Source of the DNA: a virus
Taxonomy: Duplodnaviria > Caudoviricetes
Length of the DNA stretch: 58,919 nt
Strand: one strand, 5' to 3'
IMG/VR virus record: IMGVR_UViG_3300021964_007473
Coordinates: 1-58,919 of that record
In this document: piece by piece, positions 1,851 to 34,892 of the stretch
Position numbering within the stretch: the stretch's first letter is position 1
How the letters are laid out: each line of letters begins with the position of its first letter
Program-made: the position numbers and the translations under genes
The notes under the pieces: generated by a model
Databases searched by the model: none
What the model saw: only the letters and a program-made list of their open reading frames with translations
What the model was told of the DNA's origin: nothing

Positions 1851-3149
1851 TTGGACCCAATGGAGTCGGCATGGCGTTTGCTGAAGCGGCAAACGACCCT
1901 TACCGGCGACTTTGGGTTTCCTGAAAATCCACGCAACAGGTACAGGGGTGAGTACTTAGGCCCCATTCATGTTCCTACTGAATCACTTGAGATTCCGACC
2001 ATGGAAGAAGTGTACAACCAACCGCTTGACCCAAATTACACTCGACGTGATTTTCCGTTTGAATATGGAAACACCATTAAAGACATTCGTAACATTGCTG
2101 AGGCGAATGCTCAGGCTGATTTTGACCCAAACAGTACGCTTTGGGAAGCCGGTAGGCCAAGCCCGCCCAACGTGCGTTTTACCACGCAGATGACGCTACC
2201 GCAAATGATGCCGGGTTTAACCACCGAGCGGTGGCTTGACCCGCAGACCAACACCGTGATTCCCGGCTCTATTCCGCCCATCAACGCCTACCGTTACACA
2301 GGAGACATTGCACCGCGTGTCATGACCACGCCCGGTGGACAACTCATTCCGATGAGTGGACGAGAATATAGCGGTTCGTATGAGGAAGGTCAACGAAATC
2401 CTTTGCCGTACAAATATCGCTCGGAACATGGTATGCCCATGCAATTTTCTGCCCCGCCGTACGCACAAGAGATGCGTGGGATTAGTGCTGAAAATAGGCA
2501 CAATCTCTTTGGTATTCGCGGGCTTGGGCATTATCCTGAAGATTTAGTGCAAGAACGACCTCGGCACGGAGGGGGTGAAACTGCTGAATACGTTGCAATG
2601 ACACCCATTGACCGCACCCGTTTGACACCTATGCGTGCAAGTCATACACGGGAAAGCAACGAGCCTGATGCGACAAATTGGGAATTAAAATTGGATGATA
2701 GAGATTGGTTGATGAATCAAATGGAACCAAGAATGATTGAAGACAGGCTACGAAATCCAAATCCGCTTGATAGGTTGAATAACCCTTGGGATGATTACAA
2801 AGTCACCCCACATGAAGCCGCATGGCGAGAGTACGTTTCGCAATTTCCAATTTCAGCCATTCATCCTGCACTTGAAGGAGCGTACGACAGGGAAGGATTT
2901 CCCCTCCAACCCGGAGGTCGAGAAATGACCACCGAAGAAAAACTTGAATTGATTGATTACATGCGTGAACAGAAAGGCGGGCAAAAAACAATTCTGCCTC
3001 CCGGTCAATTGGTAACAGGCGAAATAAGTAGCAAAAGTCCACTTGGACTTATGAGGTACGGCTCGTTCCAACAAGGTTTAGACAAGTTGCCTCCTGAGAT
3101 GAAACAGTCCGCGATTGAGGCACTCAAGTACTACCGGCGTTCGTATTGA
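1851..3149 (+). CDS. Tagged protein (N-terminal DPMESAWRLLK) with possible ADP-ribosyltransferase-like domain
   Basis: TTG start after GAGGTGA. The body is more AT-rich than the core genes. Motif order AYRY...QFS...LFGI...AEYVAMTPIDRTRL resembles the R-S-E ART strands (weak). Confidence 0.6.
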   Translation: MDPMESAWRLLKRQTTLTGDFGFPENPRNRYRGEYLGPIHVPTESLEIPTMEEVYNQPLDPNYTRRDFPFEYGNTIKDIRNIAEANAQADFDPNSTLWEAGRPSPPNVRFTTQMTLPQMMPGLTTERWLDPQTNTVIPGSIPPINAYRYTGDIAPRVMTTPGGQLIPMSGREYSGSYEEGQRNPLPYKYRSEHGMPMQFSAPPYAQEMRGISAENRHNLFGIRGLGHYPEDLVQERPRHGGGETAEYVAMTPIDRTRLTPMRASHTRESNEPDATNWELKLDDRDWLMNQMEPRMIEDRLRNPNPLDRLNNPWDDYKVTPHEAAWREYVSQFPISAIHPALEGAYDREGFPLQPGGREMTTEEKLELIDYMREQKGGQKTILPPGQLVTGEISSKSPLGLMRYGSFQQGLDKLPPEMKQSAIEALKYYRRSY

Positions 3150-3159
3150 TGGTGATTTC

Positions 3160-4371
3160 ATGCCTACTTTTAGTGAACGTCTTGCTGAATCAGCACAGAC
3201 ACCACTTACCCCTCAGGAACACATTGACCGTTTGAACGCACTTATCGAGGCTACGGTAAATCAAAATAAATACTCGTTGAAACCGGAAGACGGAATGTAC
3301 GAAGATAGAAACGGTCAAAAAATACCAATGGAAGATGTTGCAGCCATTTTTGACCCTTTGGTGACCACGCCGGAAAGTGAAACGGTACTTCCATCGCAGC
3401 AAGCACTTCGTGAACATACTCAAGCGATGAAAAATTGGCGTGCTACGCTTGATGCTTTGCAAAACGCAGATTACAGTTCAGATGTAGCCCAAAGAGAATC
3501 TGAATTGCGAGACTCAAACAAAACACAATACCGTGATGCATTGCTACAAGCGTTACAGAATCTCTCGTCTAAACACCTTGGTGGAGAAATGGCGCAAGAA
3601 GTAACGAGACAACTTCCTTATCACAATAGTCTTGCAACTCCGTATGATGCTCACGGTGCATATAGTACACCGCTTGCTGCTTTGAACCGCGTTTCACGTA
3701 GGATTCTTACAAGTAATTTGATGCCTGCTTTAGTTGGAAGACCTTCAATGTCCTTGCCAACAGTAAAAGATAATGAATTGAAGGATTTGTTGCACAATTT
3801 GAGGCGAAAAACCGGAGTAAGCGGTACCGACATGTCATTTAGGGCACCTCACCCCCCACCGCAGGACGAACTTCAACAGATTTTGCAGTATGCGCGTGAC
3901 CCTACCGCTCCTGCGCAAGAGCAGGCTAACCTCAGCACGGCAAACATGTACGACGTTCATCCTATGCATTACGACCAATTCACCCAACTTGTGCAGGGCG
4001 GTATGCATCCTGCCATGGCTGCAAAGCAAGTGGGTCAGGGCTTTGACATGTCGCAACCGCAGTTTGGCGACATTCAGATGAGCGCAAGTCCGATGGACTT
4101 GGCCTTCCGTCTGCTCAAGGAGCGCAAGTCGCCTGAAGCCATGCGGCACAAGTTGGAATACGACAAGGAGTACGAATCTTCCCCTGAGCGCGTCAAGTAC
4201 CGTGAAGAACTGAACCGCGAGCGTCGTCGCCGTGGAATCTATGGAAGTCACGACCACAAAGACGTGAGCCACACCCAAGGTAACAAACTGACCCTTGAAA
4301 GTGAACACGACAACCGTGCCCGCCATTTCAAGAATCGTGGTACGTTGAGGCAGATTGACGAAATGGAGTAG
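3160..4371 (+). CDS. Tagged protein with AT-rich N-terminal domain and C-terminal HNH-like basic domain
   Basis: ATG at 3160 after GGTGA. SPMDLAFRLLK at ~4087-4119 is followed by YREELNRERRRRGIYG...DVSH...ESEHDNRARH, which resembles small phage HNH-type (beta-beta-alpha-Me) domains. Confidence 0.6.
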   Translation: MPTFSERLAESAQTPLTPQEHIDRLNALIEATVNQNKYSLKPEDGMYEDRNGQKIPMEDVAAIFDPLVTTPESETVLPSQQALREHTQAMKNWRATLDALQNADYSSDVAQRESELRDSNKTQYRDALLQALQNLSSKHLGGEMAQEVTRQLPYHNSLATPYDAHGAYSTPLAALNRVSRRILTSNLMPALVGRPSMSLPTVKDNELKDLLHNLRRKTGVSGTDMSFRAPHPPPQDELQQILQYARDPTAPAQEQANLSTANMYDVHPMHYDQFTQLVQGGMHPAMAAKQVGQGFDMSQPQFGDIQMSASPMDLAFRLLKERKSPEAMRHKLEYDKEYESSPERVKYREELNRERRRRGIYGSHDHKDVSHTQGNKLTLESEHDNRARHFKNRGTLRQIDEME

Positions 4372-4546
4372 TCACTTTTCTCACTTTTGTCATTCACTTA
4401 GTCACGATTTTGACATGTTTGGAATACTCACTATTCCATAGGTACTACTCTCTCTAATAGTATAGAGAGTAAGACTACTGAAAAAGTGAGTAACCCGGAA
4501 TTGTCATTTTGGTGAAGTAGTGAATGAGAAAAGTGAGGTAGTGGAC
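4371..4546. repeat. Long imperfect in-register inverted repeat (dyad centre 4458/4459)
   Basis: Paired arms: 4380-4398/4519-4537 (18 of 19 bp), 4402-4405/4512-4515, 4411-4415/4502-4506, 4425-4432/4485-4492 and 4446-4453/4464-4471. All pairs sum to 8917. Confidence 0.9.
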
Positions 4547-4547
4547 A

Positions 4548-4562
4548 CAAGCCTTAAGATGA
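4548..4562 (+). promoter_or_regulatory. Putative archaeal TATA-box promoter for the 4590 operon
   Basis: CCTTAAGA lies ~30 nt upstream of ATG 4590, which has no SD, consistent with a leaderless transcript. Confidence 0.45.
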
Positions 4563-4589
4563 CCACTCTTGTGACCAAGCCTGAGCAGC

Positions 4590-5153
4590 ATGTCTTCTAT
4601 GCCTCAGTCCAACGAAGCCGAGATTCGTCTGATGGGCCTGATTATCTCGCAGTCAGCCCTTGTCGGACTTGCCATTGGCCTGTTTGATGCAGGTATGTGG
4701 CTCAACAATGACGATTCGTGGGTGAACGGTTTCACCTACGCCATGGCCGCATTCTTCGTGCAGGGTGTTGCCTACTACGTGTTCAAGATGTTCTTTGAGC
4801 AGAACATGCAGGAACGTGTTGCGGCAACCAACATGGAGCGTGAGCGGCAGTACCGTTTCCGCAGCATGCAGAACACTTTCGACAACCGACGCGCTGAGAT
4901 GGAACTGCGAATGCAGGAAGCCCAACTTGAGCGCGAACTGCGGTGGATGGAAGCCAACCCCGGTCAAATGCCTCCAAGTTGGGGCGTTCAGGGAGGCGCA
5001 CCGTCGTTGGTGTCTCAGTATGACATGTCTCAAATGTCAGGCGCACCCAAGCATGCTGCTGAAGTCAACCAACCTGTCAACCTCGGCGTCAAGGAAGACG
5101 TGCCGCTGAAGAAGGACGGCACGCCTGACAAGCGGTACAAGAACGACGAGTGA
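4590..5153 (+). CDS. Membrane protein (2 TM) with coiled coil and C-terminal KKDGTPDKRY motif
   Basis: Two hydrophobic segments (LMGLIISQSALVGLAIGLF; GFTYAMAAFFVQGVAYYVF) followed by an E/R/Q-rich helix. Confidence 0.75.
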   Translation: MSSMPQSNEAEIRLMGLIISQSALVGLAIGLFDAGMWLNNDDSWVNGFTYAMAAFFVQGVAYYVFKMFFEQNMQERVAATNMERERQYRFRSMQNTFDNRRAEMELRMQEAQLERELRWMEANPGQMPPSWGVQGGAPSLVSQYDMSQMSGAPKHAAEVNQPVNLGVKEDVPLKKDGTPDKRYKNDE

Positions 5154-5416
5154 ACATGGGTCGAATCTTCAAGACGCCCGTGGATGATTCCACGGAAGCC
5201 ACCTTGAGGGCGATGCACACGCAAAACACCCTTGATACGTACTACGAAAAGGGGCTTGGTTGGGTTCGTACACTTGTGTTCAGCGGCATTGCCGTGTTGC
5301 TGACGAGTCTGTACGAATTGAGAACTGACCGCAGCGTGTGGGAAGGTACCGTCAAGTGGTTTTGGCTCAAGATGGGCGATTTGGCTGCTTGGCTAACGGG
5401 GTGGGTCAATGGTTGA
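5150..5416 (+). CDS. Small membrane protein
   Basis: Hydrophobic segment LVFSGIAVLLTSLY and a Trp-rich amphipathic C-terminus. Translationally coupled to its neighbours. Confidence 0.7.
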   Translation: MNMGRIFKTPVDDSTEATLRAMHTQNTLDTYYEKGLGWVRTLVFSGIAVLLTSLYELRTDRSVWEGTVKWFWLKMGDLAAWLTGWVNG

Positions 5417-6125
5417 GCCTGCGGGTACCGCCTTGGTCGGTGCAATGGTGTGGGGTAAGACCCTGTACAACTCTTGGAGGCCGCGCAAAGTCGGCATTTA
5501 CGGTGCAGGGCTGACCGGAAAGACCACCCTTGACCGCTACATGACCACTCCGGGTGAGATGGAAGAGATTCCTGAAGAAGAACGGACCGAACATAGCAAG
5601 ATTCTCGGTCGCTACCTGCTTCCAAAGCCTTCTCGCAAGCGCGTGAGTTGGGAAGGCGAGAAGCGTGTCGTGTTTTCTGCCGATATTGGCGGCCAAGAGC
5701 GGTTTTGGAACCTGTGGATTGATGATATGGTGTCTCGACAAGTCCGTGCAGTTGTCTATCTGTTCGATGACCGAGCAATCAAGGGTGGAAACGACGCAAT
5801 TCAGCAAATTGCAGGATTTCGCTTTCTTGTTGACGCAATTACGGGTCGAAATTACCGGTATCGGACCCTTAAGAGCCGATGGAAGGGTAAATCGTACGCT
5901 CCAAGCCTGATTATGCTTGTTGCAAACAAGGCTGACCGGTATTTTGACGATACTGCGGCCAAATTGTACGCTGAAGGGCGGATTGGGGAGCATCCCATCT
6001 TCGACCCCTTCCGAGATGACCTCATTCGCTTGCAAAAAGCGGGTATTCCAACCCGCAGGTCGTTTATGGCAACCCGAATTGGATGGAACGTGGAACCAAC
6101 GATGGTCAACCTGTTGACGGTGTGA
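5409..6125 (+). CDS. Ras-superfamily (Arf/Rab-like) small GTPase
   Basis: G1 GAGLTGKTT, G3 DIGGQERFWNLW, G4 VANKAD and G5-like MATRIGWNV. Hydrophobic N-terminal segment. Confidence 0.9.
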   Translation: MVEPAGTALVGAMVWGKTLYNSWRPRKVGIYGAGLTGKTTLDRYMTTPGEMEEIPEEERTEHSKILGRYLLPKPSRKRVSWEGEKRVVFSADIGGQERFWNLWIDDMVSRQVRAVVYLFDDRAIKGGNDAIQQIAGFRFLVDAITGRNYRYRTLKSRWKGKSYAPSLIMLVANKADRYFDDTAAKLYAEGRIGEHPIFDPFRDDLIRLQKAGIPTRRSFMATRIGWNVEPTMVNLLTV

Positions 6126-6130
6126 GAAAC

Positions 6131-6304
6131 ATGGATAAAACGAAAGTAGCGTCGGTCGGCTCGGCAAGTCAGTCCCTTCGGACTGTGATTCCGTTGTGGA
6201 TTGCCAAGTTGATGCGATTGAAGAAGGGTAGCATCGTTGAATGGAACGTCATTCGTGAGGAAGACACGTATTCGGCGCACATGCGGGTGGTGGAGGAAGA
6301 ATGA
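6131..6304 (+). CDS. AbrB/MazE/SpoVT-family DNA-binding protein
   Basis: TKVASVGSASQSLRTVIPLWIAKLMRLKKGSIVEW matches the archaeal AbrB pattern S-L-R-x-x-I-P-x-x-I-x(3)-[LM]-x-L-x-x-G-x-x-[VL]-x-W. Confidence 0.85.
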   Translation: MDKTKVASVGSASQSLRTVIPLWIAKLMRLKKGSIVEWNVIREEDTYSAHMRVVEEE

Positions 6305-12251: not shown

Positions 12252-12983
12252 ATGAAGCCCGTACTCGTTCGTAAATCTGAAACTGCGTTGCAGCAGGTAC
12301 CAAGTGGCGGTTTGCAGTTGGTGGTTGGTGGCAAAGGCCCATCAATTCGTGAACTTGCGGGCATGGCTTTTGGCCGAAAAACAGGTCAGAAAGGGCAAGG
12401 ATGGCAAAGACTTGGTGCTATTGCTGATTTGGCAGGTCGCGGTCTTTCTGCTGCGGCTACCACGCAACAAATTGCAGACCAAATGCAAGGGGGCAACCTC
12501 GCTGCTCCTATGGGTGCGTACGCACAATACCTTGCAAACCAACCGTGGCAATTCATTGAAAGGCAAAAAGAAACACAACCTCAAACTCAATCTTCGCCCA
12601 CTCAGCAGCAATCCCCACAAATGCAGTCTGTTGCACCGGGTTCAACTGCTCCTGATGGCTCCGCACTACCACCGGAGCAAATGATGCTACCGGGTATGGA
12701 GCAACCTCAGCAACCTCAGCAACCTGTGCAGCAACCTGTGCAGCAACCTGTGCAGCAACCTGTGCAACCTGTTCCTCCTGAAGAAGCAGCAGCGGCCATG
12801 ACAGGACAACCTGTTCAACAGTCTGCTGCTGCTCAGCCTGCTGCTCAACCTGCTGCTCAGCCTGTTAACCCTGCACTTGCAGCAGAACAACTCCGAGCGC
12901 AAGGACAAACCGGTTTATTCACCTATTCTGCTGAGCCGTTTGAACATGCGATGGACTACTTGCTCAAGAGGTTGAGCCGATGA
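12252..12983 (+). CDS. Gln/Pro-rich protein with C-terminal tag (EPFEHAMDYLLKR)
   Basis: GAGGTGA SD, N-terminal VLVRKS, and QPVQ and AAQP repeats. Confidence 0.75.
   Translation: MKPVLVRKSETALQQVPSGGLQLVVGGKGPSIRELAGMAFGRKTGQKGQGWQRLGAIADLAGRGLSAAATTQQIADQMQGGNLAAPMGAYAQYLANQPWQFIERQKETQPQTQSSPTQQQSPQMQSVAPGSTAPDGSALPPEQMMLPGMEQPQQPQQPVQQPVQQPVQQPVQPVPPEEAAAAMTGQPVQQSAAAQPAAQPAAQPVNPALAAEQLRAQGQTGLFTYSAEPFEHAMDYLLKRLSR
12701..12773 (+). repeat. Coding tandem repeats (9-bp QQP and 12-bp QQPV units)
   Basis: GCAACCTCA and GCAACCTGTGCA units read directly. An AAQP x3 repeat follows at ~12828-12863. Confidence 0.9.
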
Positions 12984-14467
12984 ATGAAGACATGAATCAG
13001 TTCATCCTTGAGATGGACCGTGAAATGTCGGCCAAGTCCTTCAGGTACTTCTTTACCGAGATTCTCGGTTTTGAGTACTCGTACCACCATGAATGTTGGG
13101 ACAAAGGGTTGGACTCCAACCGCTACTACTGTGTGAAAGCAAGTCGTGACCACGGCAAATCCGTGTTCTTCATGTCCTATGCCCTGTGGATTGCGGCGTT
13201 TCAGCCCAACACCCACGTCATGATTTTCAGCCACTCGCTTGAGCAGACGCTTGAACACATGCGGTTCATTCGCAACAACATCGAATCCACCCCGTGTCTG
13301 CGACACCTTATTCCTGAAGGCCGACCTTGGCGAAAGACCTACTTTGACTTTGCAAACGGAAGCCGTATGATGGCAAAGTCCGTGGGTGGTGGTACCCGTG
13401 GTTTCCACCCGAACGTGGTTGTGTGCGACGACATTCTGTGGGGCACGACCGGTACTGAATTGCAGCGTGCTGCGGATTGGTTCTATGGTGTTCTGCTTCC
13501 TGTGCTGCACCACACCGGTCGCATGATGATTGTCGGTACACCTTTTTCGTACAACGACCTGTACGCAGAACTTGAGCAACGTGAGGCATTCACCGTTGAA
13601 ACCTACCCTGCCATCAACACCGAAGGAAAAGCCCTGTGGCCTGAGCGGTGGGATTTGGAATCGCTTGACCAACGGCGACTTTCTATGCCTGCTATTCAGT
13701 TCTCCCGTGAATACCTGTGCGAGCCGATTCACGACGTTGCGAGTATGTTCCCCAACGACATTCTTGAAAAAGCAAGGGACAGGGACCTTGTGTTGCTTGA
13801 CCGCGCTGAGATGGAGTATGACGAAGAAGGTGAGTCGGCAGGCATCTTTGGGCAGCATTTCATCGGATGGGACACGGCGATTGCCTCGGACAAGAACGCT
13901 GACTTTACCGCTATGCTTGTGCTACGTACGTTACCTGATGATGGTACCAAACAAATTGTCGGTGTGCATCACGAACGTGGAATGAGCGGTGCAGCGCAGA
14001 AGCGGCAAATCCTGATGATGAACAACCGCTTCCAACCTGACTTGATTGAACTTGAGGGCAACAACTTCCAACGCATGTTTGCTGCTGAACTGCAAGACAT
14101 GCGCAACGACATTCCCATCAAGACGTTCATGACCACCCGTCAGCGCAAGGAATCCATGTTCATGTCCCTGCTCATGGCGTTTGAGCAAGGTCAGATTCGC
14201 ACACCCTACGGGGATGAGCGAAGCCGTGAGTTCACGCACAAGTTGGAGCAAGAACTCAACCGCTTCGGCATGCAGAAAAACGGGAAGTTGGAAAGCGTGG
14301 GTACGCACGACGACTTGGCAATGGCCCTCGCTTTGGCGAATTGGGGCACCAAGGAGTTCCGTGGCTCGCTCGTCATGCTTGACGACTACATGCCCGGATT
14401 TGGCGATTGGCTTAGTGGTGGTCGTCAGGAAGAGAAAGGAGGGTTTGGTGGATGGCTGACCCCTTGA
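12980..14467 (+). CDS. terL: Terminase large subunit
   Basis: Walker A ASRDHGKS, Walker B VVVCDD, coupling motif VGTP, and nuclease IGWDTA and HDDLAMALALA. Confidence 0.95.
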   Translation: MNEDMNQFILEMDREMSAKSFRYFFTEILGFEYSYHHECWDKGLDSNRYYCVKASRDHGKSVFFMSYALWIAAFQPNTHVMIFSHSLEQTLEHMRFIRNNIESTPCLRHLIPEGRPWRKTYFDFANGSRMMAKSVGGGTRGFHPNVVVCDDILWGTTGTELQRAADWFYGVLLPVLHHTGRMMIVGTPFSYNDLYAELEQREAFTVETYPAINTEGKALWPERWDLESLDQRRLSMPAIQFSREYLCEPIHDVASMFPNDILEKARDRDLVLLDRAEMEYDEEGESAGIFGQHFIGWDTAIASDKNADFTAMLVLRTLPDDGTKQIVGVHHERGMSGAAQKRQILMMNNRFQPDLIELEGNNFQRMFAAELQDMRNDIPIKTFMTTRQRKESMFMSLLMAFEQGQIRTPYGDERSREFTHKLEQELNRFGMQKNGKLESVGTHDDLAMALALANWGTKEFRGSLVMLDDYMPGFGDWLSGGRQEEKGGFGGWLTP

Positions 14468-14520
14468 ATTACCCGTTCGCTGAGTGGGGTTTTTAACCAA
14501 TGGTCAAGTGAGTGGTCATT

Positions 14521-15819
14521 ATGTGGGGGAGTGCATTGGTGGGTGACGTGTACGACGTGCCCCTTGTGAGTGACGACCCTTTCACCAAGATGGTGATGAA
14601 CTCCATTGCTCAGCATCCCTTCTTTTCACCGCATGACGTACCCATGCAAACCACGTCAACGGTTTTTCTCAAAGAAGACCTGCGAAAGCGAGAGTTCCCG
14701 AAGAACGGCGACGGATGGCTTGAGACGTATTGGGGAAAAGACGCTGACACCATCATTCGTGAGTGCCGCAAGATGCGACGGCACGACAAAGACAACCGTG
14801 ACGAATACGACGAAACGATTGGGCTTGTGCGCCAACTGAAAGCCATGGAGGTTGAAGCAACCATCAACAACCTGTCGTGGGCTGAAGGTATGGAGAGCGT
14901 CATTAAACAAATGGGGCTGACTGACCGTAGCCTCAAGGCGTTGCGTAAGTTTGGTGAGAGCCGTAGTGTGTCGTTGCAGAAGGCATGCCATCAATTCCTC
15001 AAGGCCAACACCGTGTTGCAAATGCTCAACGACAAAGTGGATTGGGATGAAGACGACCAACAATCGTGGGTTGACGCCACGCATTTGCAGAAAGATGCTC
15101 GCAAAATGTGGCGAAACGTACTGCACCAAGTGGACACGTTGAACAAGGCAGAACAAGATGCCCTGTACTTTGCAGCAGAAGAATTGCAAGCCCACGGTCA
15201 CCTGAGCAGCCGAGAGTTGCTCCGCCGTGGCTCAGACACCTTGGACCGCAACATGACGGCGCAGCGCATGGGTGCATTGCTCAAGATGTACGGTGAAGAG
15301 TTGAACATCTTCAAGAGTACATCACGCGGTGACTACGTTCTTTTGGGTCGTGATGGATTCATCATCAAGGACATTTGGGCGTACATGGCGGGTTCACTCG
15401 ATTCTGACGGTAGCATCTTCATCAGCGAGCGCGGTGACCCCCGTGTGACCTTCGTTGCAAGCGGTGACTCAGGGAAACAACTGTGCGAAGACTTGCACAA
15501 GGCCACCGGATGCGGTCGTCTTGTCACGGACCAAAAGGTGTCCCGCAACACCAAGAAGAGCGTACACCGACTCATCTTTTCACGCAAGGACGACATTCGC
15601 CGTGTCCTCAAGGCTACCCTTCCCCACATGATGCTCAAGACCACGCAAGCGAGAGCCATGCTCTCGTACGTGGATGAGAATGATTCCATGCGAAAGCAGG
15701 AGTTGTACCGACTTGTCACCTTCTCAAATTGGAAGGACCATACGGTGAAAGCCAACGGGCTTCTTGATAAGTGGGGAATTGATGCCGATACCATCGGTGC
15801 ATACGCGGAGGGTCTATGA
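14521..15819 (+). CDS. Protein with C-terminal LAGLIDADG homing-endonuclease-like domain
   Basis: YMAGSLDSDGSIFI at ~15382-15423, preceded by a ~280-aa helical/winged-helix-like region. TTTTTAAC TATA-like box at ~14490. Confidence 0.75.
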   Translation: MWGSALVGDVYDVPLVSDDPFTKMVMNSIAQHPFFSPHDVPMQTTSTVFLKEDLRKREFPKNGDGWLETYWGKDADTIIRECRKMRRHDKDNRDEYDETIGLVRQLKAMEVEATINNLSWAEGMESVIKQMGLTDRSLKALRKFGESRSVSLQKACHQFLKANTVLQMLNDKVDWDEDDQQSWVDATHLQKDARKMWRNVLHQVDTLNKAEQDALYFAAEELQAHGHLSSRELLRRGSDTLDRNMTAQRMGALLKMYGEELNIFKSTSRGDYVLLGRDGFIIKDIWAYMAGSLDSDGSIFISERGDPRVTFVASGDSGKQLCEDLHKATGCGRLVTDQKVSRNTKKSVHRLIFSRKDDIRRVLKATLPHMMLKTTQARAMLSYVDENDSMRKQELYRLVTFSNWKDHTVKANGLLDKWGIDADTIGAYAEGL

Positions 15820-17567
15820 TGGCTGAAGAAGGACGCATTTCTCGGTTCCTGTCAGGCCTTCGTAGCCCGTTCAAGTCGCGTGAGTCACCCACGCCGACCA
15901 TGCCGTTGTGGTCAAGCGGTATTCAGGAACCCGTGATGGCTCAGGGCATCACCATTCCGGCCCTCTATGCGGTCAGCAACGAATCGCTGATTCTGCGCAC
16001 CGTTCTTTCCAAGTTGCGTCAAGAAATGTTCCGTCGCGGCTACTATTGGGAAAAGAAGTTCACAGTCAAGTGTACGGTGTGCGATGAAGAGTACCAACAG
16101 GAAATGGAATCCTGCAAGCAATGCGGTGGTGAAGTGCGCAAGCCTGACCCTGATGAGTTGACCTACCCTAAGTGGTTGCTCGGTCAGGAGAACTCGATGG
16201 AACAATCGTTTGTCCATCTGCTCCATGAAGTTGAGAATGACCTCAACATTGTGGACGACGCCTTCCTCATCTTGGTCAAGGAATACTTCATTGACCCTGA
16301 AAGTAAGGAGATTGCGTTTTACCGTGTCAAGGAGATGATTCGTGGTGACCCCATCTTCATGCGCATTGTGGCCGACAAGCGCGGTGTGCGTGGTGGCCGA
16401 TTCAAGGTCTGCATCATCCATCGTGACGAAGTAAAGACACACGCTGACGACAAGGTGTGTGAGAACTGCGGTCGTGACCTTGAAGACGTTCACTACGTCA
16501 ACATGGCCGGTAGCGGAAAGACGCAGTATTTCGTTGAAGGTGAAGTGATACACGTCAGCAAGTACACTCCGTCGAAGTTGTACGGACGTAGCCCTGTCAA
16601 CACCATGTGGCGTCAAGCCATGACACTCACGGCCATGGACAATTACATGTACACGGCTTACCAAAAGCGACGGATGCCCAAGGGTATCATCTCGGTGACT
16701 ACGGACAACCTTGAGTCCATGAAGTCGTTTTGGAAGTCCGTTGACGAAAAGATGGAGCGTGACCCCCACTACATTCCCCGTGTTGGTATTGAATCGCAAA
16801 CCGGCAAGGGTGGCGTGAATTGGGTCAAGTTCATGGACACCTTGGAGGAAATGCAGTACATTCCGGTTCGTGACGAGATTCGCAACAGGATTGCTGCATT
16901 CTATGGTGTTTCAAGCATCTTCATGGTGGACACCGGCAAGTCCGGTGGTCTGAACAACGAGGGCATGCAGATTCTTGTCACCAACCGTGCGGTTGAGTTT
17001 GGTCAGAAGGTGTACACCGATGTTTTGTTCCCCCGTCTGCTCAGGCAGATGAACGTTAGCGATTGGAAACTCACCTTGTACCCCAACGAGGAAGAGGACG
17101 AAATCACTCGCCTGCGCCGCGACGAGCAGGAACTCAACGTGGCTCAGCGCATGGCTCAGTTGGGCTTCCAACCGGAACTGCTTGAAGACCCGGCCAACCG
17201 TGACATTCGCTTCGTGTACCGCAAGCCACAACCGCAACCCGGTATGCCCGGTATGCCTCCCGGTGGCGCACCTCCGGGTATGCCCGGTATGCCTCCCGGT
17301 GGTATGCCTCCCGGTGGTATGCCGCCGCAGATGGCAGGCGGACCGCCGATGGTTGGGGGGATGCCTCCGGGTATGCCGATGCCGCCGCCTCAGCCGGGTG
17401 GTCAGGGCGTTGGTCTGCGCAATCGAGGTCCTGCTGCTCCTGAGCGAAGGACCACGGTTGGTAGCGGCGCACCGGTCAGCAGCGTTCAGCAACGCGGTCC
17501 GCAGCCGAACCTACAACAAAATGTCAGCAACGCATTGATGAACGCCCGAAGGCCTCGCGGTGCCTAA
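15816..17567 (+). CDS. Portal protein with Zn-ribbon insertions and Pro/Gly/Met tail
   Basis: Lies after terL. Portal-like segments EVIHVSKY..SKLYGRSP and RNRIAAFYGVS. Inserts CTVC/CKQC and CIIH/CENC. Confidence 0.9.
   Translation: MMAEEGRISRFLSGLRSPFKSRESPTPTMPLWSSGIQEPVMAQGITIPALYAVSNESLILRTVLSKLRQEMFRRGYYWEKKFTVKCTVCDEEYQQEMESCKQCGGEVRKPDPDELTYPKWLLGQENSMEQSFVHLLHEVENDLNIVDDAFLILVKEYFIDPESKEIAFYRVKEMIRGDPIFMRIVADKRGVRGGRFKVCIIHRDEVKTHADDKVCENCGRDLEDVHYVNMAGSGKTQYFVEGEVIHVSKYTPSKLYGRSPVNTMWRQAMTLTAMDNYMYTAYQKRRMPKGIISVTTDNLESMKSFWKSVDEKMERDPHYIPRVGIESQTGKGGVNWVKFMDTLEEMQYIPVRDEIRNRIAAFYGVSSIFMVDTGKSGGLNNEGMQILVTNRAVEFGQKVYTDVLFPRLLRQMNVSDWKLTLYPNEEEDEITRLRRDEQELNVAQRMAQLGFQPELLEDPANRDIRFVYRKPQPQPGMPGMPPGGAPPGMPGMPPGGMPPGGMPPQMAGGPPMVGGMPPGMPMPPPQPGGQGVGLRNRGPAAPERRTTVGSGAPVSSVQQRGPQPNLQQNVSNALMNARRPRGA
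17239..17400 (+). repeat. Coding PGMPPGG repeats in portal C-terminus
   Basis: CCCGGTATG and CCTCCCGGTGGT units read directly. Confidence 0.85.
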
Positions 17568-18311: not shown

Positions 18312-18886
18312 AGCCACGACCCGTTGAATCCGAAGTACTGACGAAGGCCCGTGACATGGCTGCTCGCCTTGATGCCTTGGAGAAGGCCAAGTGTGATTGC
18401 GGCAAGGAACCCTGCGAGTGCAAGTCTTGCCCCAAGTGTGGTGGCAAGATGGCAAAGATGGGATGCATGAAGGCCGGTTGCGGCTCTATGCAGAAGGCCG
18501 ACGAACAGGTGAAGGAGAAGATTACCGAGGTGAACCCTCACTTTCTGACCGAGACGGGCGGACAGACGCGCACCGCGTACTACTCCACCCGTGACCGTCC
18601 CATTGAGACGGAAGACCACAAGCCCAAGCGTGCTAAGGACGGCAGCAAAGTCAGCCTTGAATCCCTTGGAAGCCGGATGAACCCGCATGAGGGAACCGGT
18701 GTTGACCGTGAGGATGCACAGGGCGGCTCCCCTGTCAAGAAGTCCCCCGCGAGTGAGATGCGCGAGGCTGCTGAACAGGGTGCGCCCATGGTCTGCGGTC
18801 TGTGCGGCGGTACTGAAGACACCGGTTGTCTCGCCCATGGTGGTATTGACCTCATGGCCTGTCCGAAGTTCAAGCCGCTCCGTTGA
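18308..18886 (+). CDS. Cys-rich head-associated protein
   Basis: ARLDALEKA, then CDCGKEPCECKSCPKC..., with a C-terminal CGLC...C...C. Confidence 0.7.
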   Translation: MKPRPVESEVLTKARDMAARLDALEKAKCDCGKEPCECKSCPKCGGKMAKMGCMKAGCGSMQKADEQVKEKITEVNPHFLTETGGQTRTAYYSTRDRPIETEDHKPKRAKDGSKVSLESLGSRMNPHEGTGVDREDAQGGSPVKKSPASEMREAAEQGAPMVCGLCGGTEDTGCLAHGGIDLMACPKFKPLR

Positions 18887-18897
18887 GGGGTGGTCTT

Positions 18898-21800
18898 GTG
18901 TCCTACGAGCAGTTCGACCATGCGACGGTCAACCTGCTTAAGTCGCTGAGCGACGGGCTTGATTTGGAAGAAGCCGCTGCTGAGTACATCATTGCATGGG
19001 ACTCGTTGCAGAAAGCCCCATCCGGTGATGCATCTTACGTGCTGCTTAAGCGCGAGGCTGAAAACATCATTGAAGGGAAGAAGCGGGCAAGTGCTGATGC
19101 ATACCTGCTTGGGTTTGACCCGGTGGGTGAGCCAAGCCTGCACCCGTGGTACGAAGGGCTACAATCGGTAAGCGACCACAAACACGGACACGCCTTTTGG
19201 CCGACGTACAACGCACCTGTTGGTGCGCCCTACCAAAACGAAAACTTCCCCTTCCATCCTATGCATCATCCGCTGCTGCGTCAGCATGCGGTAAGCGGTA
19301 AGCCTGCATTCGTCGAGGGTCTGCGAAAGTTCGTTCTTGGAAAAGGTGGACACGCACAAGAAGAGAAAGAGATGGAGCAGGCTTGGCTTGCTGAGTTGGC
19401 GGGAGAAAAACACCCTGTCACCCACGGCTACAAGCCTGACCCAAAGGACCCCACCCGTACGATTCCAATTGTCGGGAACCTGAACGAAGGCATGTCGGAT
19501 GATGCGAAACATCAGGTTGACCTGTATGAACGGGACTTCAGGCGTTGGATGAAAGCCAATCCTGAGCGTGAGGACTATTGGCGCACGCATCAGGCTGAGA
19601 TGGTCAAACGTGGGTACCAAACAATTGACGATGCTTTGCGCAACGAGCATTTCGATTCACGCTCAAACGAATGGATGAGCGAAGACTACGCCGAAGACCC
19701 ATATGCAGGTGTGTCTGTACCTGAAGGGCTTGGGCACATGGGCTACATGCTTGGTCTTGAGTGGTTCAGCCCTCAAGAGCGACAGGTGGTGATGGACGCC
19801 ATCAACGAAGGTACGGTTGGTACTGAACATAGCAAGAACATCACGCTGCCTGACGGGACCAAGGTTCCCACGGCTCGATTCATTCACAACATGTTGTACC
19901 GCATGACTCCTGAAATGGATTGGGCAACCCGTAAGCCCAAGCACTTTGGTCGCAACGCTGCTATGCGCCTTGAGAACAACGACACCGACTACGCTCAAGG
20001 TGAAGAAGGTCGCTTCCTTCAGTCTGCTTTGGGCAAACTCAGCCACTACTCTCGTCTAACAGACTTGGGTGGAGACACCCTCTTCGGTGCAATTCGTGAC
20101 AAGATTCACGACCTTCATGGTATTGACCCTGAAGACGATGAAACGGCTGAGGTTTTGGAAAACCTACCTCGGTTTGAAATCGGTAAGAATCAACATCTGC
20201 TCAACGGCAAGATGGATTGGAACGATGTGGTCGAAGGTTCATGGGGGCACTTTAAGGGCAAGAAGCGCGAACCTGAGAAAGTACGCATGACCATGGACGA
20301 CCTGTGGTTTTTGTCAGGCTACGACCCAAACACAAAGCAGGTGATGCCTGACCACCCCATTTACGGTTCTCAAAACGTGGATGAACCGTTCATCAACCGT
20401 GATACGTTGGAGGCCATGGAAAAGGAAGCAGGTAAGCACAAGGGGCTTGAGCAGCAAGCAAAGTCCATTCGTAATCATCTTGGTTTCCTCAAGAACTCAT
20501 TTGGTCCCTCACCTGACGACAAGAACATACCCTCGTATTGGAAGTTTCATCCAAGTGGTTATTCCTACGGTCCGGGTCGCTTTTGGTCCCAATCCTTTGA
20601 CAATGTTGGTGGGCAGGGTATGTCCCTACCTACCTACCTCGACGTGGTGCATTCACCGCACGCTGACGAACAAGGCAATTCGTTCATGCTGATGGGTGAA
20701 AGTCAATCTCAGCAGAACATGCCAAACATGGCAAACCATCGCCTCATCAATCACTTCCTTCCTGAAGTAACACAGGCCCGTGGTGAGTACGAGGTGATGG
20801 GTGACGAAGGGAAGGTGACCGGTCGCTTTGTCCGCCATACCCCTGCGTTGTTGATGCAGAACGTCCTCTCACCTACCAACGTCACCCGTGTGTTGGGTGG
20901 ACGAGAAGGCTCGACGTTCAAGAACAATCACACCGATTTCAAACACTCCTTCTCACCGTTGTACGAACGTACCCTTCGTGACTTCAATGACCGTGGTGCC
21001 AACATTTCATCGGTTTTGCCCGCAGGTCTGAAGACGATGGATTCTCGGTTGAGTCACAATCAATTCCTTCGCCTTAACCCTGAATCAATGTACGGTGCTA
21101 CTCCCGGTGAGTTCACAATGGCAAAGGATGCACACCGACAAGCATTCGGTCTTGGACACATTTTCCATCCGAGCCAACCTTCAACCAAGAGTGTGCTTAG
21201 CCATCGTGACTTAGTAAATGGGGCACCGTTCACGGCAGGTGAATCCCCTGAAGACTTTGAGAGCATCATGGGATGGGGTGGCATCAAGTCGCCAACCCTT
21301 CAACGTCTCAAGCAGCGTATCATTGAGTTTCCATCGGATGCTGAAGCGGTGCAGACCGTTTCCATGGTGGCACGCATGCTCAACACGGACAAACCGCGTG
21401 ACGTGTGGAACTACTTGTCTGAGGGCGATTACAAAGAACTTGAGAACTACTACAACGAAGCACGTGGTGGCGGCTTCTCTTCTGAGCAAATCAACAAGTT
21501 GGTTGAAGATGCCAAGGCGGTTATCCCCGCTTGGTCCGAGGTCGCTCGCCAAAGCCTGTCTTCACAGAAAGGTGCGGTCAAGGATTCACCTGTTCGTGGT
21601 GTTGAACACATGCTCGGTATGGGCGGTGCAATGCCTGCTCTTCAAGAAGAGCAGCGTTTGCAGGATGAAGTCGAATACTTGCAGAACCGGCTGATTGAGC
21701 CAACTGAAGAAGACGACGTTGACCTGCTGCGTCAGCAGTATGAGGATGCGAAGCAGCAACTCATTCAGTTGCAGATTGGCGCACAGTCGAAAGCACTTGG

Positions 21801-24642: not shown

Positions 24643-24660
24643 TAGGGCTTTATGTACCAT
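24643..24660 (+). promoter_or_regulatory. Putative TATA-box promoter for protease/capsid operon
   Basis: CTTTATGTA ~25-30 nt upstream of ATG 24680, in a short intergenic gap. Confidence 0.45.
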
Positions 24661-24679
24661 AACGTAGGATGGGGAGGCA

Positions 24680-29778: not shown

Positions 29779-31365
29779 ATGCCCGTCGTCTTCAGTCCCG
29801 GTGAGCCGGAAACCCGGCCCTTGGACCCGTCGGCAATCGTGTACACCACCGCACAGAAGGTCGCTGACCTGCTCGACATTGGACCCGCAGACGCGGTGCT
29901 GATGAGTGCTGATGCGGACGCAGATGCCGTGTACATCACGGGCAACGAGTTCCGCAGCCACGGCTTTGAGGTCGGTGACCTTGTTCGGGTGTATAGCGAT
30001 GCAGACCCGTTTGGTCACGAAGACTTGGAGATTCAATCCATCGCTGCAAGTACCGCAGGGGACTCAGCAGGGAAGGGACACGTCAAAATCACCTTCACGA
30101 CCTCTCCGTTGACGGCTGCTGACTACCAAGTGGCTGACGACGGCTACATTCAGAACCAAGCCTCGTTCACCAACGGCAAGACCCGTGGTGTGACGAAAGC
30201 CAAGGTTGAGCATGTGATTCAGCGCATGCAAGACCGGATTGACAACATCACGCACAACGCTTGGCGACCCTACCTCGTCACGGCGGAGTACATCAACTTC
30301 GACACGTACAAGCCCTACCGTCGCCGCTACTACACCGATTACGTAGGTACTGCCCCGCTCATGTTCCGCAACGTACAACAAGTGTTGCGGATTGAGTTGT
30401 GGCAAGGAGACGATTACCGTGAAATCGGAGCAGCCGAAGCCCGCATCAAATTGGCAGATGTTTCGGGCTTGGGTGGAGAGAGTCTGTACGTTAGTAGTGG
30501 TAACGGTAGTGTTGGTGTTCTTTCTGTTGGTAGCGGCAGTACTGATTGGCGTGGAGACTTTGACGCAACCACGGCGGCTCAAAACCTTGCTGACCTCATC
30601 AACAAAGAAGACCGGGTGAACAAGGCAGCGGTGACGTTCAGCCCTGCGTTCACGCTTGAAGGCTCCACCTCCAACGTCGCCGTACACAACGAGTTCCTTG
30701 CGAGCGCGAACGCTGACCTTGGTACGGGAGTCGTCAAAATCACAAGCATGCGCCCCGTCAAGAGCGGTGAAACGTGCAGCATCGTGTCCACCACGGATGA
30801 CATTGTGATTGAGCAGGTGGCAGAACACACGGCTACGGTGGCTTCAGCCGTGTCGGGGACTATCACGGTGGATTCGACTGAAGGATTCGTGAATGCCGGT
30901 GTCGCCATCAACGGAGCCATCGTCTTCCGCTACACGGGCAAGACGGCAACCACGTTCACGGGCTGCGCTGACGTGGCCGGTGACCATACCGCCGTGACGG
31001 GTACCATCTCGCAGAAGACCTTCCAAGTGGACCTGCAAGGCGGCAGCAGCAGCGGCGACGTAGGCCGTCTGCGCGATTGGTGGCTTGACCCGGAGCAGGG
31101 CATCATTTACTTCAACAACTCCTATCCGTTCTTTGAATGGAACGCAATTAAGGTCGCCTACATCTATGGCGAGCGGTACATCGAGAAGGCCATTGAGGAC
31201 ATTTGCACGAAGATGGTCGCCATCGAGTTGCTGATGGCTGACGACCGCAGCGTGCTGATTCCTGAAGGTACGCAGAACATTGACCTTGCAAGCAAGGTGC
31301 AACTGTATCAGGCTGAAATTGACCGAACCTTGCCCCGCTACGTTGAGTTGGTGGTGTTTGAGTGA
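29779..31365 (+). CDS. Head-tail adaptor/connector-like protein with large insertions
   Basis: N-terminal YTTAQKVADLL and C-terminal IKVAYIYG...AIEDICTKMVAIELL resemble SPP1 gp15/HK97 gp6-type adaptors. Position fits. Confidence 0.65.
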   Translation: MPVVFSPGEPETRPLDPSAIVYTTAQKVADLLDIGPADAVLMSADADADAVYITGNEFRSHGFEVGDLVRVYSDADPFGHEDLEIQSIAASTAGDSAGKGHVKITFTTSPLTAADYQVADDGYIQNQASFTNGKTRGVTKAKVEHVIQRMQDRIDNITHNAWRPYLVTAEYINFDTYKPYRRRYYTDYVGTAPLMFRNVQQVLRIELWQGDDYREIGAAEARIKLADVSGLGGESLYVSSGNGSVGVLSVGSGSTDWRGDFDATTAAQNLADLINKEDRVNKAAVTFSPAFTLEGSTSNVAVHNEFLASANADLGTGVVKITSMRPVKSGETCSIVSTTDDIVIEQVAEHTATVASAVSGTITVDSTEGFVNAGVAINGAIVFRYTGKTATTFTGCADVAGDHTAVTGTISQKTFQVDLQGGSSSGDVGRLRDWWLDPEQGIIYFNNSYPFFEWNAIKVAYIYGERYIEKAIEDICTKMVAIELLMADDRSVLIPEGTQNIDLASKVQLYQAEIDRTLPRYVELVVFE

Positions 31366-31730
31366 GGGAGTTCACGAAGCAAGGCATGGCTCTTGTTGAT
31401 GGGCTTACCGAGATGTACATGAAAGACAAGAAGTTGCAGGCCGACCTGCGCGAATACTTCACGCAAGAGCCGACGAGCATGCGTGAAATGTTCCTTCGCA
31501 TCGAAGCAGGTGCGGCTGACTGTGAGTTCATTGAAGGTGAAATCATTAACGATGTGGGTGAGCCTGCGGACGAGATGATTGTTGGGGCCATAAACGACGC
31601 GGTGGACCGGCAAATGCTTGCAGCCAACCCTCAGATTCGTGAGCAGCAATTGCAGTACAAGGATGGGTTTTTCGTACCCCTTGACTACCGTGACCTGAAG
31701 GAGATGAAGCGTACGGAGGGGATTCGGTAA
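31362..31730 (+). CDS. Hypothetical protein (neck region)
   Basis: Coupled acidic ORF between the adaptor and the terminator-like gene. Confidence 0.6.
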   Translation: MREFTKQGMALVDGLTEMYMKDKKLQADLREYFTQEPTSMREMFLRIEAGAADCEFIEGEIINDVGEPADEMIVGAINDAVDRQMLAANPQIREQQLQYKDGFFVPLDYRDLKEMKRTEGIR

Positions 31731-34054: not shown

Positions 34055-34570
34055 ATGATTATATCCACCGCTATGTGCCGACGGCTTGGGCTTGAGCAGT
34101 ACGCTCTTTGGGTGTGTGAGCAGAATGGCGTCGAGCATGCAGCGGAATGCCCTGTCTCAAGCCACTCGGCCATCATTGCTTGGGTACGAGAGCGTCTTGC
34201 CGTACCGGAAGAGCCGGTGGTCGAAGAGGTTGAAGTGGTGGAACAACCTGCTGAAGAGGTCGTGACCGAAGAGGTCACTCCATTCCCCTCCACATTGGCG
34301 TACGACGCCATGACCGTTGCTGAACTGCGTGAGTTGTGCAAGGAGCGCGGCTTGCCGGTGTACGGTACCAAGGCCGAGATTGTGCTGCGCCTGCGTCAGC
34401 ACGACAACGGCATCGAAGTCGAAGAAGATGAGACGGAAGGCCCCGCTGAAGAAGCGGCCCCTGAAGTCGAGTCGGATGCCCCCGCCGAAGAAGAGGCGGC
34501 TGCACCCATTGGAGATGAATTGAATGACACAAGTAGTGACGGACAAGAGCCTGTTGTTGAAGACGAATGA
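34055..34570 (+). CDS. SAP-domain protein with acidic linkers
   Basis: YDAMTVAELRELCKERGLPVYGTKAEIVLRL is a canonical SAP motif. Confidence 0.88.
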   Translation: MIISTAMCRRLGLEQYALWVCEQNGVEHAAECPVSSHSAIIAWVRERLAVPEEPVVEEVEVVEQPAEEVVTEEVTPFPSTLAYDAMTVAELRELCKERGLPVYGTKAEIVLRLRQHDNGIEVEEDETEGPAEEAAPEVESDAPAEEEAAAPIGDELNDTSSDGQEPVVEDE

Positions 34571-34892
34571 TGAAACGATGCACGTCGTACCCGTGAATCC
34601 CGATGACCCTTCGCAGGTCATCGAGGTTTGGGTGCGCGACATTTCGTTCCTCGACATTCAGGACGCCGCGCAAAAAATGGTCTTCGTTCAAAACGGTGAA
34701 ATCTCCCTCTCGCTCAAGGCGTATTGGGAGCATGCCTTCTCCAATTGGATTGTGCGCACCAACCCCGCCCTGACGGGTGCTGAACTCCTGTCCCTGAAGG
34801 GACCTATCGGTGAAGCCGTGTCGCGTGTGCTTCCGCAGCCAAACGAGATTGCGGAGGCCATGCAAGGGGGGTTTATGACGCCGAGCGAGTGA
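34524..34892 (+). CDS. Tail assembly chaperone (gpG-like)
   Basis: Size and position between the tube and tape measure. Ends with GGGGGGTTT. Confidence 0.6.
   Translation: MTQVVTDKSLLLKTNDETMHVVPVNPDDPSQVIEVWVRDISFLDIQDAAQKMVFVQNGEISLSLKAYWEHAFSNWIVRTNPALTGAELLSLKGPIGEAVSRVLPQPNEIAEAMQGGFMTPSE

Follow-up and report, generated by a model that had tools for sequence, protein, structure and literature searches.

The locus and the anatomy of its dyad

The subject of this report is dyad A, a symmetric element of short repeats in the IMG/VR virus contig IMGVR_UViG_3300021964_007473, which was analysed over its full 58,919 nucleotides (nt) and is called the window below (58.9 kb, about 55% complete). 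All genes called in the window lie on the + strand, and dyad A heads a co-directional morphogenetic (late) gene block of about 54 kb. The features of the locus, followed by more distant genes that bear on its interpretation, are these, with lengths of proteins in amino acids (aa):

4369-4546, no strand: the whole of dyad A, in which short repeats form two inverted arrays about a core rich in adenine and thymine (AT-rich), with the symmetry centre at 4458/4459
4372-4431, + strand: left arm, with TCAC at 4372, 4381, 4394, 4402 and 4428 and TCAT at 4390, read directly
4446-4471, no strand: core, an inner palindrome TACTCTCT (4446-4453) / AGAGAGTA (4464-4471) enclosing 10 nt, with the central sequence CTAATAGTAT
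4486-4536, + strand: right arm, with GTGA at 4486, 4512, 4520 and 4533 and ATGA at 4524, mirroring the left arm
4553-4589, + strand: promoter-proximal box, delimited by an alignment of 22 sequences and followed by an ATG at 4590
4590-5153, + strand: first gene after dyad A, encoding a protein of 187 aa whose N-terminal region shows two hydrophobic segments by eye; the anchor gene for the position of the element
3115-4371, + strand: gene upstream of dyad A, encoding 418 aa; its N-terminal part is variable and rich in Q and P, and its C-terminal domain (4120-4368) belongs to phrog_6437, a function-unknown family
6131-6304, + strand (alternative start 6083): small AbrB/MazE/SpoVT-like predicted DNA-binding protein of 57-73 aa, about 1.5 kb downstream of dyad A in the same operon
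12980-14467, + strand: terL, from PHROGs/Pfam scans
4-792, + strand: HMG-CoA-lyase-like auxiliary open reading frame (ORF), cut off at the contig start (Pfam HMGL-like, E 4.8e-15)

A symmetric dyad of about 160 bp had been described at this place by the first-pass annotation, and the description was borne out. The arms at 4380-4456 and 4461-4537, 77 nt each with 4 nt between them, are 71% complementary, and dyad A aligns to its own complement with a score of 132, against a mean of 29.1 and a maximum of 48 for 100 dinucleotide shuffles (z 16.4). The match of 18 of 19 positions between CTCACTTTTGTCATTCACT (4380-4398) and the complement of AGTGAATGAGAAAAGTGAG (4519-4537), the core hairpin with its loop of 10 nt and the indel-free pairs centred on 4458/4459 could all be confirmed on the sequence, as could the orientation of the repeats, TCAC facing inward from the left and GTGA from the right. 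Four such pairs are mirrored about the centre (4381/4533, 4394/4520, 4402/4512 and 4428/4486), together with one TCAT/ATGA pair (4390/4524), and the outermost TCAC of the left arm (4372), which stands opposite TGGA, is unmirrored. Within the left arm repeat spacings of 9 and 21 bp recur, lags of 9 and 21 giving the top autocorrelations, and the exact motif STCACTTTT occurs four times in the window, each time within dyad A. The predicted folds are very stable, at -77 kcal/mol for the + strand as RNA (z -8.8), -68.4 for the - strand as RNA (z -8.4) and -35.3 as DNA (z -6.6), and for each of the three none of 200 shuffles folds as well. A protelomerase target (telRL) was considered for the element and rejected, the centre CTAATAGTAT being non-palindromic and the arms only 71% complementary.

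Dyad A is also the stretch of the window with the lowest content of guanine and cytosine (GC), whether measured over 100 nt (0.33) or 180 nt (0.36). The first-pass annotation had called its gap the only long non-coding gap, which is not so, as the ORF list leaves four further gaps of 175-489 nt, one of them containing the 73-aa AbrB-like ORF; what stands is that these have a GC of 0.51-0.57 against 0.39 for the gap holding dyad A, which is the sole AT-rich gap in the window. An independent DNA contig from another study spans 3607-4966 with zero differences, and because it bridges the region unchanged dyad A is no assembly artefact. Of the sequencing runs mapped to the window, three of RNA and one of DNA, all kept as contigs, one RNA run gave contigs that cover 4145-4295 and, farther right, the sequence from 4553 onward, leaving the dyad uncovered; coming from one low-depth study of a variant strain, this pattern is evidence neither of a transcript start nor of a silent dyad.

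Other dyads in the window (12724-12860, 30935-31092, 34848-35055 and 53000-53263) were rejected as iteron elements, their GC being of the coding type. The dyad at 34848-35055 is imperfect, 208 nt long, of normal GC and with a score of 96, and lies just past two ORFs that overlap, 34055-34570 and 34524-34892; the homologous place in the complete relative G002 holds a weaker dyad. That at 12724-12860, in ORF 12252-12983 immediately before terL, consists of tandem Q/P/V-rich coding repeats (CAGCAACCTGTG units), and this ORF is 36% identical to its G002 counterpart, terL being 79% identical.

Conservation of dyad A in related viruses

Searches with the 187-aa protein recover 34 related loci at 49-96% identity, from which 21 non-redundant loci were retained and joined with the window; the 13 that were dropped comprise 12 near-duplicates and L010, whose contig starts 20 nt before the ATG. 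Conservation in relatives had been proposed as a check on the element, and both its position and its architecture are kept in all 21 non-redundant loci. In 22/22 sequences, the window included, a dyad ends just before a conserved box directly upstream of the 187-aa orthologue, and in 21/22 its self-complement score exceeds the maximum of 100 shuffles. The length of the dyad ranges from 76 to about 250 nt and the unit that makes up its arms differs by lineage (TCAC, GTTCA, GTCAT, TATCA or TTGTC), the same unit, inverted, filling the other arm within each lineage. The mean autocorrelation is highest at lag 9 (0.37 vs about 0.28), a lag that is among the top three in 19 of the 22 loci, and 21 bp comes second. 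Indel-free pairing in register over the full length is found in some lineages only, and a core resembling TACTCT...AGAGTA recurs in a subset of the relatives and of the second copies described below, a partial conservation seen in a noisy alignment. Dyad A is, on these comparisons, a conserved, virus-specific array.

Conservation falls at dyad A itself in two close pairs: between L033 and L034 the downstream genes are 89-99% identical and the upstream protein 58%, and between the window and G004, its closest relative, the corresponding values are 95-98% and 60%. The phrog_6437 domain (80 residues) is nonetheless encoded 0-1.4 kb upstream of the dyad in 20 of 21 relatives, ending or closely following the upstream gene, and in the remaining one (L042) just a 16-residue tail of it was matched, at the contig start. 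Its invariant residues include D48, S50, H51, N65 and R66, and the N-terminal parts joined to it vary, with open frames of 367-907 aa in five relatives and 911 aa in G002. Pfam and PDB sequence searches with the domain gave no match, and its AlphaFold2 (AF2) model hints at a beta-beta-alpha shape with a predicted local distance difference test (pLDDT) score below 50 over that part; an HNH-like identity was dropped on both counts.

Genome layout, promoter-like boxes and a second copy

The window encodes a terminase large subunit, portal, protease and major capsid protein, along with two giant ORFs, and is collinear over 38 of 42 ORFs with G002, a complete relative of 107.6 kb in which two gene blocks read outward. 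The half of G002 outside the collinear part is transcribed oppositely and holds the genes for a DNA polymerase of family B (PolB), a SNF2 helicase, a Hef/Xpf-type nuclease and a thermosome subunit; the replication module is thus known from G002 and lies beyond the ends of the window contig. According to published descriptions, the genes of Magrovirales fall into two clusters transcribed in opposite directions and encode an MCM-containing replisome of archaeal type, a viral TFB and an HMG-CoA lyase (PMC10768690; PMC5434244, in the part available); magroviruses are described as abundant and spread worldwide, with uncultured marine Poseidoniales archaea as hosts (PMC5434244). Traits of that description found here are the Caudoviricetes structural module in the window, the opposite archaeal-type replication module and thermosome in G002, and the HMG-CoA-lyase-like gene, ORF 4-792, which scores 174 bits against the NCBIfam HMG-CoA lyase model, below its cut-off of 246. 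By gene content and layout the window represents the morphogenetic half of a virus resembling the magroviruses, that is of the Magrovirales, whose assigned hosts are marine Poseidoniales archaea. The GenBank phage collection holds no DNA match for window positions 3000-6200, no tblastn match for the 187-aa protein and nothing more than 27% identical to the window TerL (all <27%), and for want of a close match there no cultured relative could be used.

The box between dyad A and the anchor gene comprises, in the window, a TATA-like CTTAAGAT (4553-4560), TGACC (4560-4564), TGACCAA (4572-4578) and a Shine-Dalgarno-like TGAGCA (4582-4587). In relatives it takes the form AAGCGAAA-N3-TTATATTGACC-N6/7-TGACCAA-N3-TGAGGA-N2-3-ATG, with a spacing to the ATG that is invariant across the 22 aligned sequences, and the exact pattern TGACC-N7-TGACCAA occurs in the window at this box and nowhere else. 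In lineages of the TCAC class the last GTGA lies one 9-bp period ahead of GCGAAA, as read from the alignment. Because gene content and layout match the description of Magrovirales, promoters of the archaeal type, with a transcription factor B recognition element (BRE) and a TATA box, are to be expected, and by comparison with the archaeal consensus the box may be a BRE and TATA followed by a short leader. Runs of at least 7 A/T in the window were uninformative as TATA candidates in a genome of 55% GC. Two short gaps, 24643-24679 before the protease gene and 14468-14511 before ORF 14512, contain the TATA-like runs GCTTTATGTACC and GGGGTTTTTAACC, respectively, 22-30 nt ahead of start codons, and these may be internal promoters.

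A scan of G002 with k-mers from the arms revealed a second cluster, a paralogous dyad termed copy B (31248-31418 when G002 is oriented as here), with TGTCAT units as in dyad A of that genome and a similar core. Copy B is present in 5/5 relatives whose available upstream sequence reaches 9 kb or more (G002, G004, G005, G006 and G007), 8.4-9.4 kb upstream of A and in the same orientation, and the two copies bracket a variable accessory cassette of about 9 kb. As the window starts only 4.4 kb upstream of A, its own B would lie off the contig. In each of the five genomes copy B is built from the same lineage-specific units as A; in G007 the outer left arms of the two are identical over 35 nt, and in G004 copy B is 221 nt long with TCAC units. 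A matrix of shared 7-mers gives the row maximum to A and B of the same genome in 5/5 rows. No iteron-type B copy was found in the fetched parts of G001 and G003, the dyads that score there being coding or GC-rich. A miniature inverted-repeat transposable element or insertion sequence was rejected, since the window element matches only itself and strong AT-rich dyads in the relatives are restricted to the syntenic A and B.

Copy B is located at the strand-divergence point of the two gene blocks. Leftward of it, in 5/5 genomes, lies a TGAAA-type BRE-like motif (CTGAAA in 4/5; GTGAGAAA in G004), followed by TATTTAA(A) or TTTATAAA; the TATA-like octamer is TATTTAAA in three genomes, with variants in the other two (G004 and G006). 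An ATG follows at some 26 nt from the octamer centre and opens a frame of at least 70 codons in 4/5, none being found for G004. The same repeats therefore stand beside more than one promoter-like region of the replicon in 5/5 relatives, the window contig being truncated short of B. Given that A ends at the box of the late block and B lies 45-110 nt from the leftward box of the replication block, the dyads would stand upstream of two outward-facing major promoters.

To the right of copy B (for example L051 ~15690-16220, in G002) there is a stretch of about 450 nt with no convincing ORF and with blocks strongly conserved in five genomes, among them GTCCAACCCATATGGGTGCGA and a run of A that gives way to a GC-rich, hairpin-like segment. 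Rfam yielded no match to this stretch in G002, and a search for tRNAs in the loci of the five relatives came up empty; the stretch could be an undescribed non-coding RNA. Between B and A, at 32875-33010 of G002 (reverse orientation), CATAGCAC and CTATAGA repeats are crowded into sequence with a GC of 0.60-0.65, and the G003 contig opens with 230 nt of GC-rich repeat sequence of the same kind.

The upstream contig end falls within about 13 kb of A in 29 of 35 contigs (window included; contigs of 16-107 kb; our own arithmetic on ranges). The 11 nearest upstream ends have no feature in common and all look coding-like by eye; G001 carries a terminal repeat of 702 bp at 97% identity, and the terminal repeat of G002 lies inside the replication block. 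Physical genome termini were rejected as the cause of this clustering, as terminal repeats and featureless ends look like circular assemblies with a break-prone variable region, and it seems to be the variable cassette from B to A that breaks assemblies.

Among the genes downstream of dyad A the AbrB-like ORF is a possible source of a protein that binds the repeats. It is kept in 20 of 21 relatives (no match in L035) and is the most divergent and fastest-evolving gene of the conserved block, at 28-59% identity in 19 relatives (97% in G004) against 59-82% for its neighbours. PF04014 matches 16 of 19 orthologues at E <= 1 (best 3.5e-5), the window's own copy being unmatched. The AF2 model has a pLDDT of 79, and 8 of its 9 best Foldseek PDB rows are of AbrB/SpoVT type, among them Sso7c4, pSSVi C56 and pSSVx C68, all at E > 0.1. 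Three AbrB sequence groups run parallel to three repeat classes. The AbrB-like protein is accordingly a weak lead, a candidate binder of the repeats on predicted fold and position. Between two small membrane-protein genes and the AbrB-like gene lies ORF 5409-6125 (+ strand, 238 aa), in which small-GTPase motifs of Arf/Ras type can be made out by eye (GAGLTGKT, DIGGQE, NKAD); it is 69-98% identical in 21/21 relatives and has no Pfam or NCBIfam match. The giant ORFs of the late block, 37385-53974 (5529 aa) and 18883-24642 (1919 aa), have G002 counterparts of 6359 and 1978 aa, and the 1919-aa protein gives a weak match to an ATP-dependent DNA ligase domain (E 2.7e-4, below the Pfam cut-off).

Candidate functions and known systems

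Dyad A is most likely a gene switch or a replication start site. Tentatively, we favour an operator or upstream control platform for two outward-facing major promoters, which we rank above an origin because both copies flank promoter-like boxes and A holds a fixed register with its box; the two readings are compatible and not exclusive, and promoter control may coexist with an origin. As an operator, dyad A would be a double-stranded DNA site on which a symmetric, cooperative protein complex assembles. Some 8-10 short repeats, of 9-bp period with a TCA(C/T) core and lineage-specific flanks, would form the two inverted arrays about the AT-rich core, and a sequence-specific DNA-binding protein encoded by the virus would coat the arrays of both A and B. 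The coated arrays would govern the access of TBP and TFB to the two promoters, such that the platform formed by A and B times early versus late transcription; were the AbrB-like protein the binder, it might exert feedback on A and shut-off at B.

Several observations weigh against this proposal. Two of the five diagonal maxima in the 7-mer matrix are narrow (68 vs 66 and 76 vs 74), and by columns dyad A of G004 outscores that of G002 on copy B of G002. Copy B is separated by 45-110 nt from its TATA-like box, while dyad A adjoins its own directly. The window's box is degenerate (CTTAAGAT, with no GCGAAA; it reads CTTAAGATGACC...), the assignment of promoters depends on resemblance to the archaeal BRE/TATA consensus, and the A-type box is unique in G002 among matches up to 120 nt from gene starts (four other hits of the regular expression, 3-50 nt away, are unlike it), so that it does not define a promoter class. 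The parallel between AbrB groups and repeat classes is confounded, as the groups track phylogeny; the AbrB-like proteins of L033 and L034 are 89% identical with near-identical N-terminal halves, yet the repeats are TATCA in one and GTTCA in the other, and L013 and L032/L034 combine similar repeats with different AbrB groups. An AT-rich core between inverted arrays is the look of a helicase-loading origin and is nothing that an operator needs, and the match of the arms, like that of A with B, could have arisen from gene conversion between repeats rather than from selection by one binder. Binding, a transcript start and regulation at the dyad are, moreover, predictions from the sequence.

If instead the dyad were transcribed, its long hairpin might serve as a processing site, stabilise transcript ends or terminate transcription where the accessory cassette meets the late block. 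The hairpins are predicted to be very stable for both strands, the outer arms pair in nearly all relatives, and the co-directional flanking genes would permit read-through transcription; the pattern of substitution argues otherwise. Pooled over 22 dyads, the paired positions comprise 1003 Watson-Crick, 41 G:T, 58 A:C and 276 other mismatches, so that wobble tolerance is seen on neither strand (276 of 375 mismatches are non-wobble), and mismatches without a G:U bias disfavour an RNA helix. Fold energy favours the + strand in some and the - strand in others of 24 sequences (window and 23 loci), pairing requires indels in many relatives, and the internal direct repeats of 9 bp have no role in a helix. 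Covariation, which the first-pass annotation named as a sign of structured RNA, was unfavourable among five close relatives (term +1.08), with 3 of 52 predicted pairs compensatory and about 8 broken in some sequence. A permissive Rfam search of 3800-5200 gave nothing near a gathering score (best 31 vs 249 bits), all matches being to plant or animal miRNA-precursor models and read as generic long-hairpin matches, and no terminator-like site was found at dyad A. The view that these are symmetric protein-binding sites rather than a simple RNA terminator is upheld as a prediction: the pattern looks like that of repeated protein-binding sites, or of a DNA palindrome homogenised by recombination, and not like a selected RNA structure, which makes a role as structured RNA very unlikely. 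Still more improbable is the packaging site (pac- or cos-like) that had been offered as a candidate, in which the small terminase would bind the flanking repeats and cleavage would occur in the core. Repeats about an AT-rich centre do resemble the pac sites of P1 and SPP1, dyad A heads the block that contains the terminase, and a conserved domain that may have a beta-beta-alpha shape is invariably encoded next to it on the upstream side, though its pLDDT there is below 50; but the dyad lies 8.4 kb upstream of terL and about 7.7 kb upstream of the ORF preceding terL, a second copy, making two per genome, stands beside the replication block in 5/5 relatives, and the nearby contig ends that were inspected, 11 in all, are coding-like by eye and have no feature in common. 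A recombination or module-boundary element, consisting either of sites in direct orientation used by a site-specific recombinase that has escaped recognition or of a palindrome homogenised by gene conversion, at the edges of the 9-kb cassette and with no role in transcription or replication, would explain the sharp drop in conservation at A in two close pairs, the bracketing of a variable region by A and B in the same orientation and the clustering of contig ends upstream of A (29/35). General scans found no integrase or transposase here, none being reported for Magrovirales (PMC10768690), and the architecture is retained where the anchor protein is only 49% identical, with a fixed spacing to the box, which argues for a function in situ; this alternative we consider distinctly unlikely.

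A dyad-type replication origin, in which inverted arrays of initiator-binding sites flank an AT-rich unwinding core and two helicases are loaded head to head, is a serious if doubtful possibility, almost as likely as the operator; A and B would then be two origins, or an origin and a second cis-element as in the ori/crr pair of P4. Replication of the virus requires an origin, no description of which is available, and a virus-specific origin and initiator are to be expected because a near-complete archaeal replisome including MCM is reported for magroviruses, Orc1/Cdc6 not being among the components listed (PMC10768690; PMC5434244, in the part available). In accord with this are the 8-10 short repeats in inverted arrays, the core of lowest GC in the window, the lineage-specific repeats that an initiator and its sites would be expected to show, the sharing of repeats by two cis-elements and the position of B at the strand-divergence point. 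The global minimum of the cumulative AT skew of G002, at 31265, also falls inside copy B; it coincides with the switch in coding strand and is therefore not independent evidence. The origin proposed by the first-pass annotation thus keeps its inverted repeats about an AT-rich core, and loses the skew inflection that was to accompany it, as none is seen at A in the window or in the complete G002, where both cumulative skews are still rising through 40.8 kb. Nor did Pfam and PHROGs scans of the neighbouring genes in the window and G002 recognise an AAA+/Cdc6, Rep-like or other initiator gene beside A or B, though very divergent proteins could escape them; the interval from B to A contains accessory genes, a pair of origins separated by 9 kb would be unusual, and an origin has no need of the fixed 9-bp register that A keeps with the promoter box. 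An iteron origin of plasmid or lambdoid type, in which at least three direct repeats of some 17-22 bp each are set at helical spacing beside a rep gene, was rejected, as the units here recur every 9 bp within inverted arrays and the scans recognised no rep gene.

The operator and origin readings might be joined in a more far-reaching proposal, which we regard as speculative and rather unlikely, namely that the paired dyads are a bipartite specificity system in which one viral protein reads the lineage-specific 9-bp repeats at both sites, fires replication at the AT-rich cores and switches the two outward promoters from early to late, the cassette from B to A and its dyads constituting an exchangeable immunity or incompatibility module. 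If this were true, the module would define which co-infecting magroviruses cross-regulate or exclude one another in the ocean. For experiments on magroviruses the paired dyads provide the first tangible, conserved cis-elements, and they are short enough for synthesis; the differences in repeats between lineages make specificity swaps possible, with a candidate binder encoded nearby. They also mark a sharp border between a conserved core and an exchangeable accessory cassette, which bears on recombination among these viruses and on the assembly breaks found there. Text searches in the magrovirus literature, supplements aside (PMC11706807, PMC10160649, PMC10768690, PMC5332604 and the available part of PMC5434244), turned up no account of such an element, of the control of transcription or of the start of replication, and a halovirus genome paper reports only unrelated short palindromes.

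Comparison with known systems is instructive, beginning with the host domain. Archaeal chromosomal origins carry ORB and mini-ORB repeats, inverted, around an AT-rich unwinding element, and dyad A shares with them the two inverted sets of short repeats about an AT-rich core, as well as an archaeal host and a reported archaeal-type replisome; it differs in its 9-bp, lineage-variable repeats with a TCA core, in the lack of an adjacent orc1/cdc6 and in the presence of two copies 9 kb apart beside major promoters. The origins oriS and oriL of herpes simplex virus (HSV) are palindromes, and several origin copies occur per HSV genome. The core origin of simian virus 40 (SV40) has four pentanucleotides arranged as inverted-repeat pairs (PMC1779811, in the part available). 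These eukaryotic dyad origins resemble the present element in having short inverted sites about an AT-rich centre within promoter regions and, for HSV, multiple copies; they belong to an unrelated lineage, no initiator of the superfamily 3 (SF3) type was identified here, and the magrovirus arrays are longer (8-10 units). In satellite phage P4, ori and crr lie several kb apart and contain the same short repeats in both orientations, bound by one protein. Two separate cis-elements with shared short repeats are likewise found here, but the P4 elements flank the initiator gene, whereas the interval from B to A holds accessory genes and no recognised initiator.

Phage lambda offers another parallel in its operators OL and OR around the immunity region, each with three 17-bp dyad sites and with the repressor gene between them. 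Paired paralogous regions, virus-specific sequences, outward major promoters, a bracketed variable cassette and a break in conservation at the sites are features in common; the magrovirus arrays differ in being 160-250 bp long with an AT-rich core, and the candidate binder is encoded outside the cassette. Arrays of short repeats are also bound by small beta-sheet proteins, as in the omega heptads of pSM19035 and the ParR/parC system of plasmid R1. These are comparable in their 7-10 short contiguous direct or inverted repeats at more than one promoter region and in a small predicted DNA-binding protein of the operon, and unlike dyad A in period (7 or 11 bp rather than 9) and in protein type (ribbon-helix-helix rather than the AbrB type of the candidate); no partition ATPase was recognised here, and the virus is presumed lytic. 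The AbrB-like proteins of Sulfolobus virus-plasmid hybrids are weak structural matches only to the candidate binder. The pac sites of P1 and SPP1 have repeated motifs on either side of a central region, that of P1 measuring about 160 bp overall, and dyad A agrees in both respects, but lies far from the terminase genes and occurs in two copies per genome. Dyad-symmetric repeat arrays are thus already known as a kind, and what is new is their form in an archaeal virus, their pairing around an exchangeable cassette and the lineage-specific units from which they are built.

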